64,000 nucleotides of DNA from Gammaproteobacteria bacterium. Its GTDB lineage: Bacteria; Pseudomonadota; Gammaproteobacteria; Eutrophobiales; Eutrophobiaceae. Position numbers and translations under genes: made by a program. Below are positions 2,685 to 58,253 of the stretch, one piece after another. Position 1 is the stretch's first letter. Each line of letters begins with the position of its first letter. The stretch is from positions 1,840,167 through 1,904,166 of the forward strand of contig CBDAPU010000001.1 of the NCBI GenBank assembly GCA_965198875.1, read 5' to 3'. The notes below the pieces were generated by a model, which was not told where the DNA came from, did no database searches, and saw only the letters and a list, made by a program, of their open reading frames with translations.

Positions 2685-3298
2685 GCACAGACAGATCACG
2701 TCAGCGTTCTCTGTGGCGCATTATAACCTTCCCTTAGAAACAGAGAAGGACAGAAGGACGCGGCGCTTATCACTCACCGGCTTTTCAGGTGAGAGAGAAC
2801 CAGGAGGCTAGAAGTTGGCCACCAAAGAGCCATGGAACGTCAGTGAAATGCCAGGTGATTCCAGCCCATGCTTTTATCATCTGTGATCTAAGAGCTTTGC
2901 CCACATGGGTGGTTCGGACAGGGATTAAGTAAAGATAAGCACACTGGTTGGGCAATCGTATTATTTATGCCTGCTGTTATCGCATCACTGCCTGTTGGGT
3001 AGAGGCCTTTAATTCGATAACCGCTGTGCTGATATGGCGCTCGCCTTCCCCTTTGGGCAGTGCAATGTGTTTCCGGGCTTATGCAAGGGGTGCATTATCG
3101 GCATGGGCTCCGGCGCCAGCGGCTGATGGCGTTATAACAGGAAGCGGATTGCATTGTTGTTGACCCGATGAAAGTGCGATGGACGCTGGTTTGATAAGAC
3201 CTGCGATTATCATAACGCCGCACTGGACAGTCGGCTTTCACATTTGCTGTAATGGGTAAACCATCATCAATTCAACGCTCACCATTCCAATATACCCC

Positions 3299-3874
3299 AT
3301 GGACAAAACCTACATCCGCTCACAGCAACTATTGATCGATTCCTTTAAGCTGGCCGCAACGGTTTTCACCAATGGTTTTCGGCCGCATTTTATTGTTGGG
3401 ATATGGCGTGGCGGCTCACCGGTTGGTATCGCCGTGCAGGAGTACTTTGAGTTTCGTGGTGTGCAAACCGATCATATCGCCATCCGCACTTCCTCTTATA
3501 CCGGTATCGGTGAGCAGGCGAGAACCATCCGTGTTCATGGCTTGCATTACATCATCGAAAACGTCAATGCGGATGATGCATTGTTAATCGTGGATGACGT
3601 CTTCGACTCCGGCAGGAGTATCAAGGCGGTGCTCAAAGAGATGCAGGAGAAGACCGGCAAAAACATGCCGCACGATCTGCGTATCGCCTGCCCCTGGTAC
3701 AAACCCGCCAACAATAAAACCGATATCGTGCCGCACTACTACCTCCACGAAACCGATAAATGGCTGGTCTTCCCCCATGAACTCTCTGGTCTGACACGGG
3801 ATGAAATAAAGGCAGGCAAAGAAGACCTCAATGACATTTATAGCCTGTTGTTTGAGCAGTCCCCCTCAAACTGA
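3299..3874 (+). CDS. Type I phosphoribosyltransferase (purine PRT-like)
   Basis: VGIWRGG and LLIVDDVFDSG PRPP-binding motif, WLVFPHE. Confidence 0.85.
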   Translation: MDKTYIRSQQLLIDSFKLAATVFTNGFRPHFIVGIWRGGSPVGIAVQEYFEFRGVQTDHIAIRTSSYTGIGEQARTIRVHGLHYIIENVNADDALLIVDDVFDSGRSIKAVLKEMQEKTGKNMPHDLRIACPWYKPANNKTDIVPHYYLHETDKWLVFPHELSGLTRDEIKAGKEDLNDIYSLLFEQSPSN

Positions 3875-6477: not shown

Positions 6478-7128
6478 TTATACTTTTAACTGATCAAGCT
6501 CATTCATTTTATGCAGGCGCCGCTGAAACTGATCTGAGGGTTCATCTCTTAACCACAGAAAAAACTCCAGCAGGATATCGGCGGTCAAACCCCAGATATG
6601 CCCACCCTCCCAATCAAACGCATGGGTAGTGCGGCGCATCCCTGCATGTTCAACTTCATGGGTGGTGTTTACCTCAGGTCTTGAAAGGAACGCTACATCA
6701 CCGATAATGACTTCAGCTACTTCTGATCTATCCGGGGTGATCTGAGGCGCTGCATGGGCCCAACCCACATAGGGAATAACATGATGACCGGCAATACTGA
6801 ACGCATCATCTAACCGCCCCATGATGGTGATGAGAGCTGGCTTGACGCCTAGCTCCTCTTCTGTCTCCCGTAAAGCTGTGGCCATCAGATCTACATCACC
6901 AGCTTGATAACCGCCACCGGGGAAACACACTTGCCCCCGGTGATTTGATACGGTTTCCGTACGCCGGGTCAACACCACTTTCACGCTGTCGTCATCCCCG
7001 GGCCAGAACAACAGTAACACGGCGGCGCTGGCATATTTTTCAGGCAACACATGTTGCGGGAAAGTTTTCGGTTGTCGCTCTTGCAACGCCAGCAACCGAT
7101 CATGGAATTGGACTTTATAGCTCATCAT
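6478..7128 (-). CDS. Nudix CoA pyrophosphatase (NudL/PCD1-like)
   Basis: LTRR...HRGQVCFPGG...TALRETEEELG Nudix box; IWGLTA. Confidence 0.9.
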   Translation of the reverse strand: MMSYKVQFHDRLLALQERQPKTFPQHVLPEKYASAAVLLLFWPGDDDSVKVVLTRRTETVSNHRGQVCFPGGGYQAGDVDLMATALRETEEELGVKPALITIMGRLDDAFSIAGHHVIPYVGWAHAAPQITPDRSEVAEVIIGDVAFLSRPEVNTTHEVEHAGMRRTTHAFDWEGGHIWGLTADILLEFFLWLRDEPSDQFQRRLHKMNELDQLKV

Positions 7129-7685
7129 GACACTTTAACTGTGCCGGAGAAAAATGACATCCGTCTTTCAATAGCATGACAGAAAAAATAATGGCTATGA
7201 TACTTTTGTGAGCAAATGTGAATGCGCTTTTTATCAGCATGGAGGAACTGTCCTGCCATCATCAATGCTCGCTCCCGATGCGGTGATCGGGAACCCGATA
7301 CCATTATCAATCTGCTATCGCCTTTATACTTACCCTGACGTCAGATAGCAGTAAAGCGTTTGCCGAGAACAGCATCGTTGCTGACAGACTGAACACCGAA
7401 TGTTACCCTGCCCATCCTTACCCCCATAGGAACGTGGCTTCAATGAAAACACCAGTGCCCTCATTTGCCCGTGCTTCCCTGAAAGCGGAGGCGTTACAAC
7501 CCTGACCGACAAGAAGGGCAAACAGGTTATGACCACACTCAACCCAGGAAAATGTCCTGGTATTAAAACCCCCGATCAGGTATTTTCAGGTATCAAATCA
7601 TCTGTTCTATCTGTTGCACCAGCGAGATGAATGCGCGTTTATTGAGAGATTAAACCGCTTACATAATTAAATAAAACTTAAATCA

Positions 7686-54298: not shown

Positions 54299-55279
54299 CT
54301 AAGCCGTCCTGAGATAAGACAGGGCCTGTTCAACCACCCCGAGGCCCGCTCCTTTCTGGCCGACATGTTCACTCAGATAACGCCGACAGGCCCTGGCGCC
54401 ATGTTGTCCCCGGCACATCGGCAAAATATGCCGCGCCATGGCATACAGGCTCTCACCTCTGGCCATCTGCCTCTCCATGTACTGCATATACCGGCTAAGC
54501 GCCTCAGAGCGACAGATCACCGCATCATCCCCGCCGAATAGAGACTGATCCGCCCGGGCCAATAGACAGGGGTTATGATAGATCGCCCGCCCCATCATGA
54601 CGCCGTCGACATATTGAAGATGCGCCTGTGCATCAACAAGCCTGTTAATGCCGCCGTTGATGATGATCTGCAGATGGGGCAGGTCCTGTTTTAAGCGATA
54701 GACAACATCATATCGCAGTGGCGGCACTTCACGATTTTGCCGTGGGCTCAAACCCTGTAACCAGGCTTTGCGGGCGTGGATCATAAACGACTGGCAACCC
54801 GCCGCCGATACCGTTTTGATAAAATGCAGCAGATGTTCATAGCTGTCCCGGCGATCAATACCGATCCGTGTTTTCACAGTGACGGGAATAGCCACCGCTG
54901 CTGACATGGCATGGACACATTCTGCCACCAGCTCCGGCTCGGCCATCAGACAGGCGCCGAACCGCCCTTTCTTTACCCGATCGCTGGGACAGCCGATGTT
55001 CAGATTGACCTCATCGTAGCCATATTGCATCGCCAATTTTGCACATGCCGTTAAGTCCTGCGGATCATTCCCGCCCAGTTGAATACCCAGCGGATGTTCT
55101 TCTTCATTAAATCGCAGGTGTTTATCCGTATCGCCATATAGCAACGCGCCTGTCGTCACCATTTCCGTGTAGAGCAGGGTGTGTTTTGACAACAGCCGTA
55201 ACAGGAAACGAAAATGTCTGTCCGTGTGGGACATCATGGGAGCGACACATAATCTGTGATTTAATGCCTTCATGATCAC
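54299..55279 (-). CDS. dusA: tRNA-dihydrouridine(20/20a) synthase
   Basis: VAPMM..TDRHFR, NLNIGCPSDRV, HARKAWLQGLSP.QNR.VPPL. Confidence 0.95.
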   Translation of the reverse strand: MIMKALNHRLCVAPMMSHTDRHFRFLLRLLSKHTLLYTEMVTTGALLYGDTDKHLRFNEEEHPLGIQLGGNDPQDLTACAKLAMQYGYDEVNLNIGCPSDRVKKGRFGACLMAEPELVAECVHAMSAAVAIPVTVKTRIGIDRRDSYEHLLHFIKTVSAAGCQSFMIHARKAWLQGLSPRQNREVPPLRYDVVYRLKQDLPHLQIIINGGINRLVDAQAHLQYVDGVMMGRAIYHNPCLLARADQSLFGGDDAVICRSEALSRYMQYMERQMARGESLYAMARHILPMCRGQHGARACRRYLSEHVGQKGAGLGVVEQALSYLRTA

Positions 55280-55487
55280 TTCTCGCTATGCCGTGGCGCC
55301 CGGATACATTTTTTCATCCACTTAACAATCAGCAATGTTAAGGATAGCCGCTATCTTCATCTTCATAAATGAGCCGGCAAAACTTAAATCATTCCAAACT
55401 TGAGAGTTGATCACAATCCGGCCACAGGGAAGCGCTGATATGGAGAGCATTCCCTGTCCCCGGTGATGGGTCGCACTTGCCCTGAGA

Positions 55488-56147
55488 TCAGAACGATCTA
55501 CGCAGTGTTAGCAGATGCGTAGCGGTTGAGTTTATCTTGGGTGGTTTGAAAAAATCTTTATTGAGCTTTGCCAGTGATTTATTTTCGGGAATAATCAGCA
55601 GGATTTTGCCTTTTAAGTTCTCATCATCGCGCATTTCCCACATGGACTTAAAACGGCTTGCTGAAAATGTTCGGTTTCCCCATGAGGGATCGCCCAGCCA
55701 TACCAGGCCATGCTCGTTGACGCCACGGATAACAGAAAAATGATCTTTATCCCGGTAACGGAGATAAACAATCGCCGGGATTTTAATGCTTTTGAGTTTT
55801 TCAAAGTCCAGTGTCAGGCCAACGGCTTTGAAGCCAAACCTCTTCACGGCCTGTTCAAGGTCTGCAAAAGAGGCCGTGCCATCATCGCCTGCTTTGATCA
55901 CCTCATCGAGAATGTCTTTCTCGTACACCGCTTGCCCGTAAAAAGAACGCAAAATTGTAGCGACAGAGGCAGAGCCACAAGAGAAATCCTCATCCTGTTT
56001 TTCAATATTGCTATCCCTTAAATCTTTCCAGGTTCTTATGGGAAGGTTGCCGGTGGCGGTTTGATAAGAAAGATGTATGGAAGCATCTTTTGCGTGAAGA
56101 CAGGCAGGCAACATCAGGCATGTGATAAAGACAAGGCTATAGCGCAT
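55488..56147 (-). CDS. Stand-alone exported C39 family peptidase (FapD-like)
   Basis: Signal peptide; KQDEDFSCGSAS (catalytic C), DHFSV (H), GDPSWG (D); no ABC domain. Confidence 0.9.
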   Translation of the reverse strand: MRYSLVFITCLMLPACLHAKDASIHLSYQTATGNLPIRTWKDLRDSNIEKQDEDFSCGSASVATILRSFYGQAVYEKDILDEVIKAGDDGTASFADLEQAVKRFGFKAVGLTLDFEKLKSIKIPAIVYLRYRDKDHFSVIRGVNEHGLVWLGDPSWGNRTFSASRFKSMWEMRDDENLKGKILLIIPENKSLAKLNKDFFKPPKINSTATHLLTLRRSF

Positions 56148-56155
56148 GTTGCTGT

Positions 56156-56254
56156 TCAAACTGGTTTACAGGAGGTGGTTATCGCCCTGCTCAAGCGATC
56201 CGTCCAGTGTGTCGCCAAGCCTGCAAGCATTAGCACGGCGAAAAGCTGTTTCAT
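56156..56254 (-). pseudogene. 5' stub of a second secreted precursor gene
   Basis: MKQLFAVLMLAGLATH... repeats the N-terminus at 57329; its ATG overlaps the upstream TAA; diverges after ~16 codons. Confidence 0.75.
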
Positions 56255-56790
56255 TACAGAAAGTTGACTAGTTCTTTCGGGGCGTTTATGCCGTATGACA
56301 CATATTCCTGGAAGCCAGAATCTGTGTCTTGGGAGTCTGTATCTATACCATATACAAAATAACGACTGTCTCGTGTTACAGGCTCTATGTATGCGAGTCC
56401 TTTTTCTTTTGTCATTTCCTCTAAAAATATAGATTCAAGTTCCCTGTTAAAAATATAAAAGGTGATTATTGAAATATTGTTTATTGAGCTATAGAAATCT
56501 TTTAGTAATTGAATGTTATTTATTTTTATCAGAAAATAATTTGGTGCTGGTATAGGTATCACTCGCCATATACCCATTCTAGCTGATGCCACTGCTTTAA
56601 TTTCAACTGGAAAATCTTTGCTTAGTAATTCAATCCCATGTCTGGACTTAAAGGTATTTCCCCTGGCATAGACGCAAGCATTCATATTGTTATCATAATT
56701 TGAGAGATACTGTAGTATCCTGATACTTCTTAAAAAAGTAGTTTCACGAAAATAATGCTTGCAGGTATATGAGCTAACACTTTTTTTCAT
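56254..56790 (-). CDS. Very AT-rich hypothetical protein, candidate immunity protein
   Basis: 178-aa ORF directly downstream of the toxin-like precursor. Confidence 0.55.
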   Translation of the reverse strand: MKKSVSSYTCKHYFRETTFLRSIRILQYLSNYDNNMNACVYARGNTFKSRHGIELLSKDFPVEIKAVASARMGIWRVIPIPAPNYFLIKINNIQLLKDFYSSINNISIITFYIFNRELESIFLEEMTKEKGLAYIEPVTRDSRYFVYGIDTDSQDTDSGFQEYVSYGINAPKELVNFL

Positions 56791-56867
56791 TGAAGAATGT
56801 GATTTTATAGCCCTTGCCTCCCCTGTATTAAGGAAAATGCAAGAGAGGAAGGGTGCGAGTTAGAGCT

Positions 56868-57329
56868 TTATTTCCACCATAAATGGAAATGACCCGGGTC
56901 ACGGGTTCTCCAGTTACCTATTGGAATTCTGGTATTGTGTAATCTTTCGTTCAAATTCCTGAGACGAGGGTTGCCTATTTTAGCCCTCCAATGTGGGTTA
57001 GAACCCTACCGAATGGCCTGAGTATCAAATCCGCCTGCCCTGCTATAGCTTGTCCCTACTCTAAACCACGCACCAGCCGGCCCTATAGGGTGTCTTGTAT
57101 ATCTCCATGCCCGAGGGATATAACTAAATGTCCGAGGGATGTAACTAAACCAAGCCCATTCCCCTTCCGTCTCCCTCATTTACTGATCAAAGAGCAGGGC
57201 GAACTCGCCAAGATCATTGTCCTCCGCGGCGCCAAAGGCAAAAGCCATATCGTCTTGATTGAGGCTTTCGGCCAGAGTGGGTTGTGTCGCCATGCCTGCC
57301 AGTAGCAACACGGCGAAAAGCTGTTTCAT
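56868..57329 (-). pseudogene. Secreted bacteriocin/polymorphic-toxin-like precursor with two nonsense codons
   Basis: Single 154-codon frame MKQLFAVLLLAGMATQPTLAESLNQDDMAFAF...ALLFDQ*MRETEGEWAW...QAIR*GSNPHW...DPGHFHLWWK; stops at 57180-82 and 57006-08. Confidence 0.75.
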
Positions 57330-57563
57330 TTTCTCTAACATGATGGGCTATCTAAAAGCATTTTTTTATTATTACTTGCGTTCTTGAAGAATAATTCGCG
57401 CTGGCGAGAAGCGTCTCATCATAAGCTAATCGGGCTATTAAGAAAAACCGCAAACTTATCCTTGAAATATATTATGAGATGATGGGGGCGGGCTCCCATT
57501 TCGGTTATTTGGCAAGGCCAGGGCCCATCAGGGATGATGCTGTTTTTTTAAGATCACCCGGCA

Positions 57564-58253
57564 CTAGCGATATGTATTGCTTAAATACGCCTGAAGCAGC
57601 ATATTGGTAAATAGCGTGCGTAGATAAAACCCCCTGGGCAACGTCAGGCCGGGTTCACCTGAGGACAGGGTGGCTTTGACCAGGCTTCTTGAATCAGCGG
57701 CTTTGGGTCTTATCTGCAAATAGGCGCCGTGACCGGTGCTGATGGCGTCATGCTCTCCAAAGCAGATCATGTCCATCAATTCCCGCCAGTCCTGTTTTAG
57801 TATTTTCTCCTGGACCCGATCAGGGCTCCACAGAAACCCATTGCCAATGCGTCTGTTTTCCAGCTTGATATTGGCGTCGGCTTCGATGGGCACCCAAAGA
57901 ACACGCGCGAGTTTATTTTTCACATTGGAGTTTTCCCAGCAAACACCCGGGGAGACCGTCATCGGTGCTGTGCAGACAAAGGTGGTTTCTTTTGCCTTGC
58001 CCTGTTTGTTGATCGGGATGGTCTTGAGCTCTATTCCCAGATGTTGGAAATCCGGGGCGGGGAGGGAGGCTGCCGTTGCGCCAAGATAGTATTCGATGAG
58101 CTGGCCGGCCCAACCTTTGGCCCTTGTTTGATTATCAGGAATGATGATATCCATCTCATTGGCGATCTGTCGTAATGACATGCCGGACAGATCAGCGCAG
58201 CGAGACAGGAGCTCAGGCTCGGAGGCGGGCGCTGTGGGTTTAGCTGTAGCCAA
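57564..58253 (-). CDS. mutH: DNA mismatch repair endonuclease MutH
   Basis: KGWAGQLIE..LGA, PDF..LGIELKTIP, ETTFVC, LQIRPKAA, PRGFYLR. Confidence 0.95.
   Translation of the reverse strand: MATAKPTAPASEPELLSRCADLSGMSLRQIANEMDIIIPDNQTRAKGWAGQLIEYYLGATAASLPAPDFQHLGIELKTIPINKQGKAKETTFVCTAPMTVSPGVCWENSNVKNKLARVLWVPIEADANIKLENRRIGNGFLWSPDRVQEKILKQDWRELMDMICFGEHDAISTGHGAYLQIRPKAADSRSLVKATLSSGEPGLTLPRGFYLRTLFTNMLLQAYLSNTYR

Follow-up and report, generated by a model that had tools for sequence, protein, structure and literature searches.

The question raised by this locus is what kind of system, and in what state, lies between the genes dusA and mutH in a 64,000-nucleotide stretch of DNA (hereafter the window, whose first letter is position 1) from a gammaproteobacterium of the family Eutrophobiaceae (assembly GCA_965198875.1, contig CBDAPU010000001.1). 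An initial annotation, made from the sequence alone, had described here a broken minus-strand frame for a secreted precursor, an AT-rich orphan gene, a TAATG-coupled second copy of the signal-peptide start and a C39 peptidase, and had taken them for a toxin, immunity and peptidase cassette; each of these elements was found where it had been placed. The region is probably what remains of a peptide export island of the Nap/Fap type, with two export steps, that was acquired horizontally and is decaying, and the modules of its relatives would follow the logic of polymorphic toxin and immunity genes; this explanation is held with good confidence. Among described systems the closest is the nap island of Neisseria (PLoS Biol 2025), which was horizontally acquired and encodes NapP (a C39 peptidase with a signal peptide), NapF (a FapF-like protein), small cationic peptides and the immunity-like NapI (PMC11798529).

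The broken frame was identified as a precursor pseudogene, by its homologues and by direct reading. Its features, all on the minus strand, were:

56871..57341, minus: precursor pseudogene, 157 codons
57270-57341, minus: signal peptide of the precursor, codons 1-24
57159-57269, minus: pro-region, codons 25-61, ending LLFDQ-stop-MRETEGE
56871-57158, minus: mature region, codons 62-157, with a type-A C-terminus
57180-57182, minus: in-frame TAA, codon 54, within the leader motif Q-stop-M-R-E-T-E-G
57006-57008, minus: in-frame TAG, codon 112, within the conserved type-A domain R-stop-G-S-N
57107-57149, minus: 21-nt tandem duplication at the beginning of the mature region, encoding FSYIPRT and FSYIPRA (Tandem Repeats Finder: period 21, 2.0 copies, 90% matches)

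When read through with X at both stops, the frame had six protein matches at E<=0.01 (26 candidates), with a best E-value of 5.8e-51. Two intact homologues, P0002 (152 amino acids) and P0003 (157 amino acids), had identities of 62% and 55%, respectively, in each case with 99% of the length covered, and a chance open reading frame (ORF) was ruled out by the homologues. No Pfam or NCBIfam match was obtained for the precursor. On direct reading its N-terminus was signal-peptide-like, with MLEKMKQLFAVLLLAGMATQPTLA before the expected cut and ES after it; an acidic stretch, ESLNQDDMAFAFGAAEDNDLGEFALLFDQ, the TAA and then MRETEGEW followed. The TAG-interrupted C-terminal region was basic and rich in Trp, Arg and Tyr, its last residues being GHFHLWWK, and the terminal TAA stood at 56868-56870.

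The defects of the frame consisted of two point nonsense codons, with no frameshift. At the position of codon 54 all six homologues had Glu, and at that of codon 112 five of the six type-A homologues had Trp, which fits the earlier guess of GAA to TAA and TGG to TAG changes. The existence of the hidden frame was likewise upheld by the homologues; its proposed start at 57329, giving 154 codons, was not. Because the homologues conserve a start motif, MLxK[IM]K with an invariant M1, four codons upstream of that second ATG (57329, MKQLF), a start at 57341 and a length of 157 codons appear likelier. Both stops were reproduced with no differences in contigs of other public runs (X1 record 6 and X2 record 14), and the TAG alone was covered, again with no differences, by X4 record 23. 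The stops are thus not an error of a single assembly; the three runs belong to one study that possibly included the source sample and do not represent independent biology. Recoding or read-through was rejected, since two different stops are involved and all three stop codons end neighbouring genes, TAA the partner gene, TAG mutH and TGA the C39 gene. The cargo gene of the window is dead by two nonsense codons, the first of them inside the putative recognition motif.

When the alignment was inspected by eye, the mature region was seen to begin (WAWFSYIPR...AWRY) much as type-B cargo does, EWAFFRYVPRAWGY / WAFFRYVPRAWGY. The window precursor therefore has the look of a B/A chimera, in which a start akin to type B is joined to a remainder of type A.

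The other features of the cassette were:

55280..57563, minus: whole inserted cassette, 2284 bp, between dusA (54299-55279) and mutH (57564-58253)
56254..56790, minus: partner gene, 178 amino acids, intact, soluble, without a signal peptide or transmembrane segment
56156..56254, minus: 5' remnant of a second precursor, 32 codons, a signal-peptide start followed by unrelated sequence
55488..56159, minus: stand-alone, predicted periplasmic C39 cysteine peptidase of the NapP/FapD class (Pfam PF03412)

The ATG of the second precursor remnant overlaps the stop of the partner gene (TAATG). Its first 48 nucleotides were identical at 42 of 48 positions to 57283-57330 of the first precursor (pairwise E 5e-13) and the two diverged afterwards; the remnant was the second, weak match of the leader profile in its own genome (E 0.0129).

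The C39 protein comprises 223 amino acids from a TTG start, or 219 from an ATG at 56147. It matched Pfam Peptidase_C39 (PF03412; cut-off 22 bits) over residues 51-175 with a score of 70.7 bits (E 1.4e-19), and its best solved relatives were the peptidase domains of ComA, PCAT1 and LahT150. Gln55, Cys61, His140 and Asp157 were all in place, which we take to serve the oxyanion and catalytic roles of these residues in C39 peptidases, and the Cys, His and Asp blocks aligned with the ComA peptidase domain 3k8u. Ahead of the domain, the N-terminus was by inspection signal-peptide-like (MRYSLVFITCLMLPACLHA before the cut, KD after it), a layout shared by the homologues. These numbered 182 among 397 candidates, with identities of up to 86%; the nearest DNA-level relatives of the C39 and partner genes were approximately 70-77% identical in protein. 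The window C39 was the only C39 domain in its own genome. It scored 80.1 bits against the NCBIfam FapD equivalog (NF058616, cut-off 330) and 70 bits against FilB (NF050078, cut-off 475), in both cases below the threshold.

A C39 fragment of 106 amino acids was also observed at 3166-3486 (minus strand) of locus L015, from an Alteromonadaceae metagenome-assembled genome. Its N-terminal part was nearly identical to the window C39, to which the fragment was closer than to the full-length C39 of L015 itself (6920-7576). This likeness suggests that distant hosts have recently exchanged parts of the island.

The setting of the cassette shows that it is a foreign insert between mutH and dusA. The genes glnD, mutH and dusA were contiguous in seven of the nine mutH loci of relatives, with mutH-dusA gaps of about 0-130 nt. 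The G+C content of the cassette was 43.7%, compared to 51.7% for the window, and with the window C39 as query no match was obtained in any of 24 genomes of the same family. A promoter and terminator scan of the region gave 6 and 3 sites, respectively, compared to 4.8 and 2.6 in shuffled sequences, which is no excess.

A search with the leader profile found one leader plus the remnant in the genome. A FapF-like barrel was not found in the window or in its genome (97% complete) by single-protein or profile searches, while the same barrel profile, as a positive control, detected barrels in all five of the other leader-positive genomes. Since the full-length precursor is dead, the second retains little beyond its signal peptide and the barrel was not found, the cassette is a remnant and not a functional system that has lost a single toxin. 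The peptidase of the window is probably a leftover that has yet to decay.

Decay was also seen in relatives. In genome G053, one locus (L028, G053:C1:683381-686566) held a barrel remnant of 66 amino acids, a precursor of 82 amino acids, partners rich in transmembrane segments and a C39 gene with three stops, and the other locus had a TAG in its barrel gene. In Candidatus Spongiihabitans (OZ253450.1) the C39 of locus L012 was split into pieces of 50 and 135 amino acids and the barrel of locus L017 into pieces of 234 and 111 amino acids, in each case near transposase-like ORFs; L017 also held only a short C39 fragment, 89% identical. The decayed island L028 adjoins glnD, in the genome of another family, and the glnD neighbourhood that it shares with the window may be a coincidence or a preferred insertion region.

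That the cassette functions as it stands, either by reading through the stops or by co-opting the C39 and partner proteins for another substrate, is very unlikely. The C39 (223 codons) and partner (178 codons) frames are indeed open, with the catalytic residues in place, and the precursor has just two point defects and no frameshift; however, the stops differ in kind, each type of stop terminates a neighbouring gene, the first lies inside the putative recognition motif, the genome search yielded neither a second leader-bearing gene nor a barrel, and the cassettes of G053, L012 and L017 have decayed in parallel. A decaying remnant is the reading that we prefer.

In runs X1 and X2, contigs with a few differences covered 57204-57331 and 55511-55900 at 4-60x the depth of the remainder of the cassette. 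Because the leader and C39 contigs were so much deeper than the rest, these samples must contain an abundance of other organisms with the same leader and peptidase.

What an intact island looks like was determined from loci collected by C39, by precursor alignment and by a class-wide search, and annotated with the leader hidden Markov model and phmmer. In 16 of the 20 leader-bearing loci a barrel gene or fragment (about 295 amino acids) lay directly upstream of the first precursor, as the initial annotation had anticipated for a FapF-like barrel. Next came one to three precursors, each with a small ORF behind it. The C39 gene was last wherever the contig extended far enough (L014, L015, L016, L020, L028, L030 and L034), and these loci together with the window confirmed the predicted linkage of leader and C39. 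All five leader-positive genomes other than that of the window had a C39 and, close to it, a barrel. With six of 400 sampled genomes of the class positive for the leader profile, that of the window included, the system is sporadic in the class.

The AlphaFold2 model of the barrel (mean predicted local distance difference test score, pLDDT, 72) had FapF as its first ten and more matches in the PDB, with an E-value of 3.1e-14 and a TM-score of 0.70; FapF was also the only PDB match of the barrel sequence profile, a weak one (E 0.014).

Several further arrangements were observed in these loci. A conserved ORF of 86-91 amino acids (MY..YPFPEMP...AE.LAE.LL.LEE), present whatever the cargo type and without a family match, was seen in L020 (722-982), L017 (8593-8868) and L015 (2524-2790) and may belong to the system as an accessory gene. 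Genome G085, of the same class, had 10 barrel and 7 C39 matches, many of them adjacent C39-barrel pairs (contigs C111, C125 and C183, for example), which is an expansion of the system. In L024 (2522-2772) a second barrel gene started about 260 nt after the partner of the first module, placing two systems in tandem.

An intact operon thus encodes an outer-membrane barrel of the FapF kind, at least one precursor, type-specific small genes and a stand-alone periplasmic C39 peptidase. Each precursor consists of a Sec signal, an acidic pro-region with a double-glycine-type motif and a variable, mostly cationic, aromatic-rich mature peptide. It would be exported by Sec, the C39 peptidase would then cut off the pro-region on the periplasmic side, the likely site being just behind the residue next to the invariant Gly, and the mature peptide would leave through the barrel. 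Leader and cargo recombine at the motif, and each cargo type travels with its own downstream gene, in the manner of bacteriocin-like modules.

The part of this scheme that could be followed most widely was the leader. A profile built from 14 leaders and run over 1.84 billion representative proteins gave 132 matches at E<=1e-3, of which 43 reached E<=1e-10; all were N-terminal, in proteins of 41-292 amino acids, confirming that the leader defines a conserved family. The distal motif L-S-x-Q-E-M-x-E-T-E-G-x was present in 127 of the 132 representatives, with the Gly in all 127 and the other residues, in order, in 118 (L), 109 (S), 98 (Q), 115 (E), 126 (M), 82 (E), 116 (T) and 105 (E). The invariant Gly was followed most often by E (55), then by A (26), D (12), K (9), N (6) and R (5); the second residue after it was hydrophobic or aromatic (W 28, F 26, L 15, V 13).

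The canonical double-glycine leader, LSxxELxxIxGG, has conserved positions at -4, -7, -12 and -15 relative to the Gly at -2. In the present family T, M, L and a hydrophobic residue stand at distances of 2, 5, 10 and 13 upstream of the invariant Gly. Because this spacing equals the canonical one, the invariant Gly would correspond to position -2 and the cut is expected after the following residue (between ETEG-E and W), one residue later than the initial annotation had placed it.

A look-alike of the motif, (F/L)-N-x-x-D-M-A-F-A-F-G-(D), was observed further upstream in the pro-region, at 57233-57268 of the window and in 41 of the 132 representatives. It may represent an additional site for the peptidase, a docking helix or the trace of an old duplication within the pro-region.

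Apart from a sequence in the supplement of PMC11798529, no description of a Sec signal combined with an LSxxEMxETEG leader was found in the full-text literature searched, which did not cover subscription journals. We regard as evenly balanced the wider proposal that the pro-region L-S-x-Q-E-M-x-E-T-E-G-(E/A) behind a Sec signal is the recognition sequence of periplasmic FapD/NapP-class C39 peptidases, that it defines a route from Sec through a periplasmic C39 to a FapF-like barrel for a large, recombining family of cationic peptides with cognate immunity genes, and that the short gonococcal Nap peptides are 5'-truncated derivatives of such precursors.

Behind the leader, the mature parts of at least 25 amino acids (n = 111) had a median length of 73 amino acids and a median net charge of +5, the charge being positive in 93; 24 were Gly-rich (at least 20% Gly). 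They formed 48 single-linkage clusters, of which 41 were singletons. Among 231 precursor pairs, 25 had leaders at least 80% identical, and in every one of these the mature parts were less than 30% identical, in agreement with the initial view of the C-termini as interchangeable modules. The reciprocal case was represented by five pairs with cargo at least 45% identical and leaders less than 60% identical; between L015 and L025, the leaders were 34% and the cargo 80% identical. Contigs of X1 and X2 with other leader-bearing sequences, at much higher depth, diverged from the window within the codons for T-E-G, at positions 57162 and 57170.

For 24 precursors and that of the window, the ORFs that came next on the same strand were compared by blastp (E<=1e-3). 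The links were confined to partners of the same cargo type, except that the E partners were also linked to those of a related type, M. All three type-A partners (window, L018 and L033) were linked; the two type-C partners (L015 and L025) were 66% identical; the two type-E partners (L022 and L024) were 59% identical, and both were linked to the Gly-rich type M of L028; the type-F partners (L022 and L023) were identical in sequence and so are not independent. Gly-rich or hydrophobic cargo was accompanied by small partners with two to four predicted transmembrane segments, and types A, B, C and I by soluble ones. These results showed that leader and cargo are decoupled and that the downstream gene tracks the cargo type, as had been expected of the small adjacent gene.

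Searches of Pfam and NCBIfam with the precursors and partners, and of PHROGs with seven partner and accessory ORFs, gave nothing significant, nor did a PDB sequence search with the type-A profile, and a Protein Atlas search with the type-A mature part gave no usable match. No known toxin or immunity domain was detected in cargo or partners by the family, PHROG and PDB-profile searches.

The intact partner gene of the window, with a G+C content of 33.7% compared to 51.7% for the window, was single-copy in its genome and had homologues at 77, 57 and 53% identity; it had no Pfam, NCBIfam or PHROG match. In L018 and L033 the homologue stood directly after a type-A precursor, and the window partner is a candidate cognate immunity protein of type-A cargo. 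Complex prediction for the L018 partner and its type-A mature peptide gave run scores of 0.00, 0.33 and 0.00, which speak neither for binding nor against it. A Protein Atlas search with the partner returned only unnamed viral clusters at 0.91, with a recognition value short of the mark, from which nothing was concluded. In L020 the homologue stood behind a type-G precursor and the unrelated 86-amino-acid ORF, an arrangement that fits an orphan immunity gene, short of proof. The open partner gene of the window would be best read in the same way, as a retained orphan immunity gene directed against the type-A peptides of neighbours.

The diversity of the cargo also bears on whether the peptides might be structural or adhesive, as in the Fap system, self-assembling into an amyloid-like matrix with the downstream genes acting as chaperones or assembly factors. 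In Pseudomonas, an active periplasmic C39 peptidase, FapD, is needed for secretion of the amyloid subunits, its substrate and recognition sequence being reported as unknown (PMC5557850). The likeness extends to Sec-exported substrates, a periplasmic C39 and a barrel of the FapF fold, although these roles are predicted for the present family. FapF is the best structural match of the barrel, FapD the best NCBIfam match of the C39 protein, and some of the cargo (24 of 111 mature parts) Gly-rich. However, the FapD score of 80 bits is far under the equivalog cut-off of 330, the barrel here (about 295 amino acids) is only 16% identical over the fold match to FapF, which is a trimeric barrel with a long periplasmic coiled coil, and the cargo is not FapB/C/E-like: no precursor has a Fap-type repeat or family match, and the peptides are hypervariable, short and strongly cationic. 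A wholesale swap behind a constant leader would be unexpected for a structural subunit, the partners of the Gly-rich types are small multi-transmembrane proteins like those of bacteriocin immunity, and a conserved candidate cleavage site is evident here, in contrast to Fap. A structural role is consequently a distinctly unlikely one, and a module of cargo and cognate protective gene is preferred.

Similarities to bacteriocin exporters were found in class II microcin and peptidase-containing ATP-binding cassette (ABC) transporter systems (ComA, PCAT1 and LahT), which share the peptidase family, the leader spacing before the invariant Gly, small Gly-rich or cationic cargo and small downstream genes, the latter with a putative immunity role here. 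In contrast to those systems, the present C39 has a signal peptide of its own and stands alone, without fusion to an ABC transporter; a Sec signal precedes the leader, which in those systems is itself the N-terminus; at the presumed position -1, Glu or Ala takes the place of Gly in most precursors; and outer-membrane export would proceed via the FapF-like barrel, not TolC. Polymorphic toxins such as those of contact-dependent inhibition (CDI) and Rhs systems (PMC3482391) likewise combine a constant N-terminal trafficking part with interchangeable C-terminal modules that have their own small genes, and likewise occur as arrays, orphan modules and AT-rich modules. They differ in that the cargo here is far smaller (tens to about 130 residues) and takes another trafficking route, and in that the toxin and immunity domains known from such systems were not detected by the searches above.

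The correspondence with the nap island was closer. In the model of PMC11798529, NapP cleaves in the periplasm and NapF exports, a holin-like NapH being invoked for crossing of the inner membrane; cleavage was assigned to GG sites within the short peptides of the gonococcus, and the NapB of N. lactamica is treated there as a longer allele. In this NapB a signal peptide is followed by ...LSQKEMKETEGEW..., which is the leader motif of the window family; it is encoded beside NapF and beside NapP, a C39 peptidase, in line with the statement of the initial annotation that Neisseria loci have such precursors next to a C39, and the match to the supplement of PMC11798529 was made by eye. Also by eye, the mature start of NapF (ADLPLTIED...) is that of the L014 and L016 barrels, and the blocks around the catalytic Cys and His of NapP resemble those of the window C39. 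The window itself has the signal-peptide C39 and a leader-bearing precursor, the latter broken by the TAA, and differs from a nap island in having a dead cargo gene and no barrel. Further differences are that a Sec signal plus LSxxEMxETEG leader is not described in the available part of PMC11798529, that the cargo types and partners are unrelated to NapA, NapC and NapI, and that the hosts here are marine Gammaproteobacteria.

A Nap-like role would make the peptides self-acting, cationic agents of regulated autolysis or of membrane and envelope remodelling in the producers, tempered by the downstream genes. The machinery (a signal-peptide C39 and a FapF-like barrel) and the leader motif are those of Nap, the mature gonococcal peptides had no activity on competitors and promoted autolysis in stationary phase, and napI could be deleted only in the absence of napRABC (PMC11798529). 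The gonococcal peptides, however, lack the Sec and leader part and may be atypical derivatives, and cargo diversity behind near-identical leaders, together with type-specific and orphan partners, is a hallmark of inter-strain conflict. We consider self-action unlikely, and favour the toxin and immunity reading of the modules.

Several points weigh against that reading. In the only relative studied by experiment, gonococcal Nap, synthetic mature peptides spared competitors and promoted autolysis instead (PMC11798529), and toxin and immunity roles across the leader family are deduced from gene arrangement. The likenesses to NapP, NapF and NapB were judged by eye in printed sequences. C39 domains are reported to cut at GG, sometimes GA (PMC5557850); the frequent Glu, Asp or Lys at -1 would be unusual for C39 substrates, so that the proposed cleavage site is a candidate. 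The type-A partner has no recognisable family or fold (AlphaFold2 mean pLDDT 45.5), the candidate type-H partners (L016 6552-6992 and L032 313-891) were dissimilar, with a transposase interrupting L016, and no type-A remnant was found by tblastn (E<=0.01) in the gap before the L020 partner homologue. Finally, open C39 and partner frames in the window are no proof of expression or selection.

The leader family and its modular cargo are a more interesting by-product of this analysis than the degenerate Nap/Fap-type copy in the window. The family offers a concrete, conserved candidate site for periplasmic C39 peptidases, and the nap island might be reinterpreted in its light, since the long NapB of N. 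lactamica looks like the ancestral, Sec-dependent form. More than 100 clusters of variable secreted peptides with matched partners are present in marine and symbiotic Gammaproteobacteria, as candidate narrow-spectrum antibacterials with an export route other than an ABC transporter. For the genome studied here the meaning is more modest: it carries a decaying foreign insert, of which the partner gene may still protect the cell against the type-A peptides of its neighbours.

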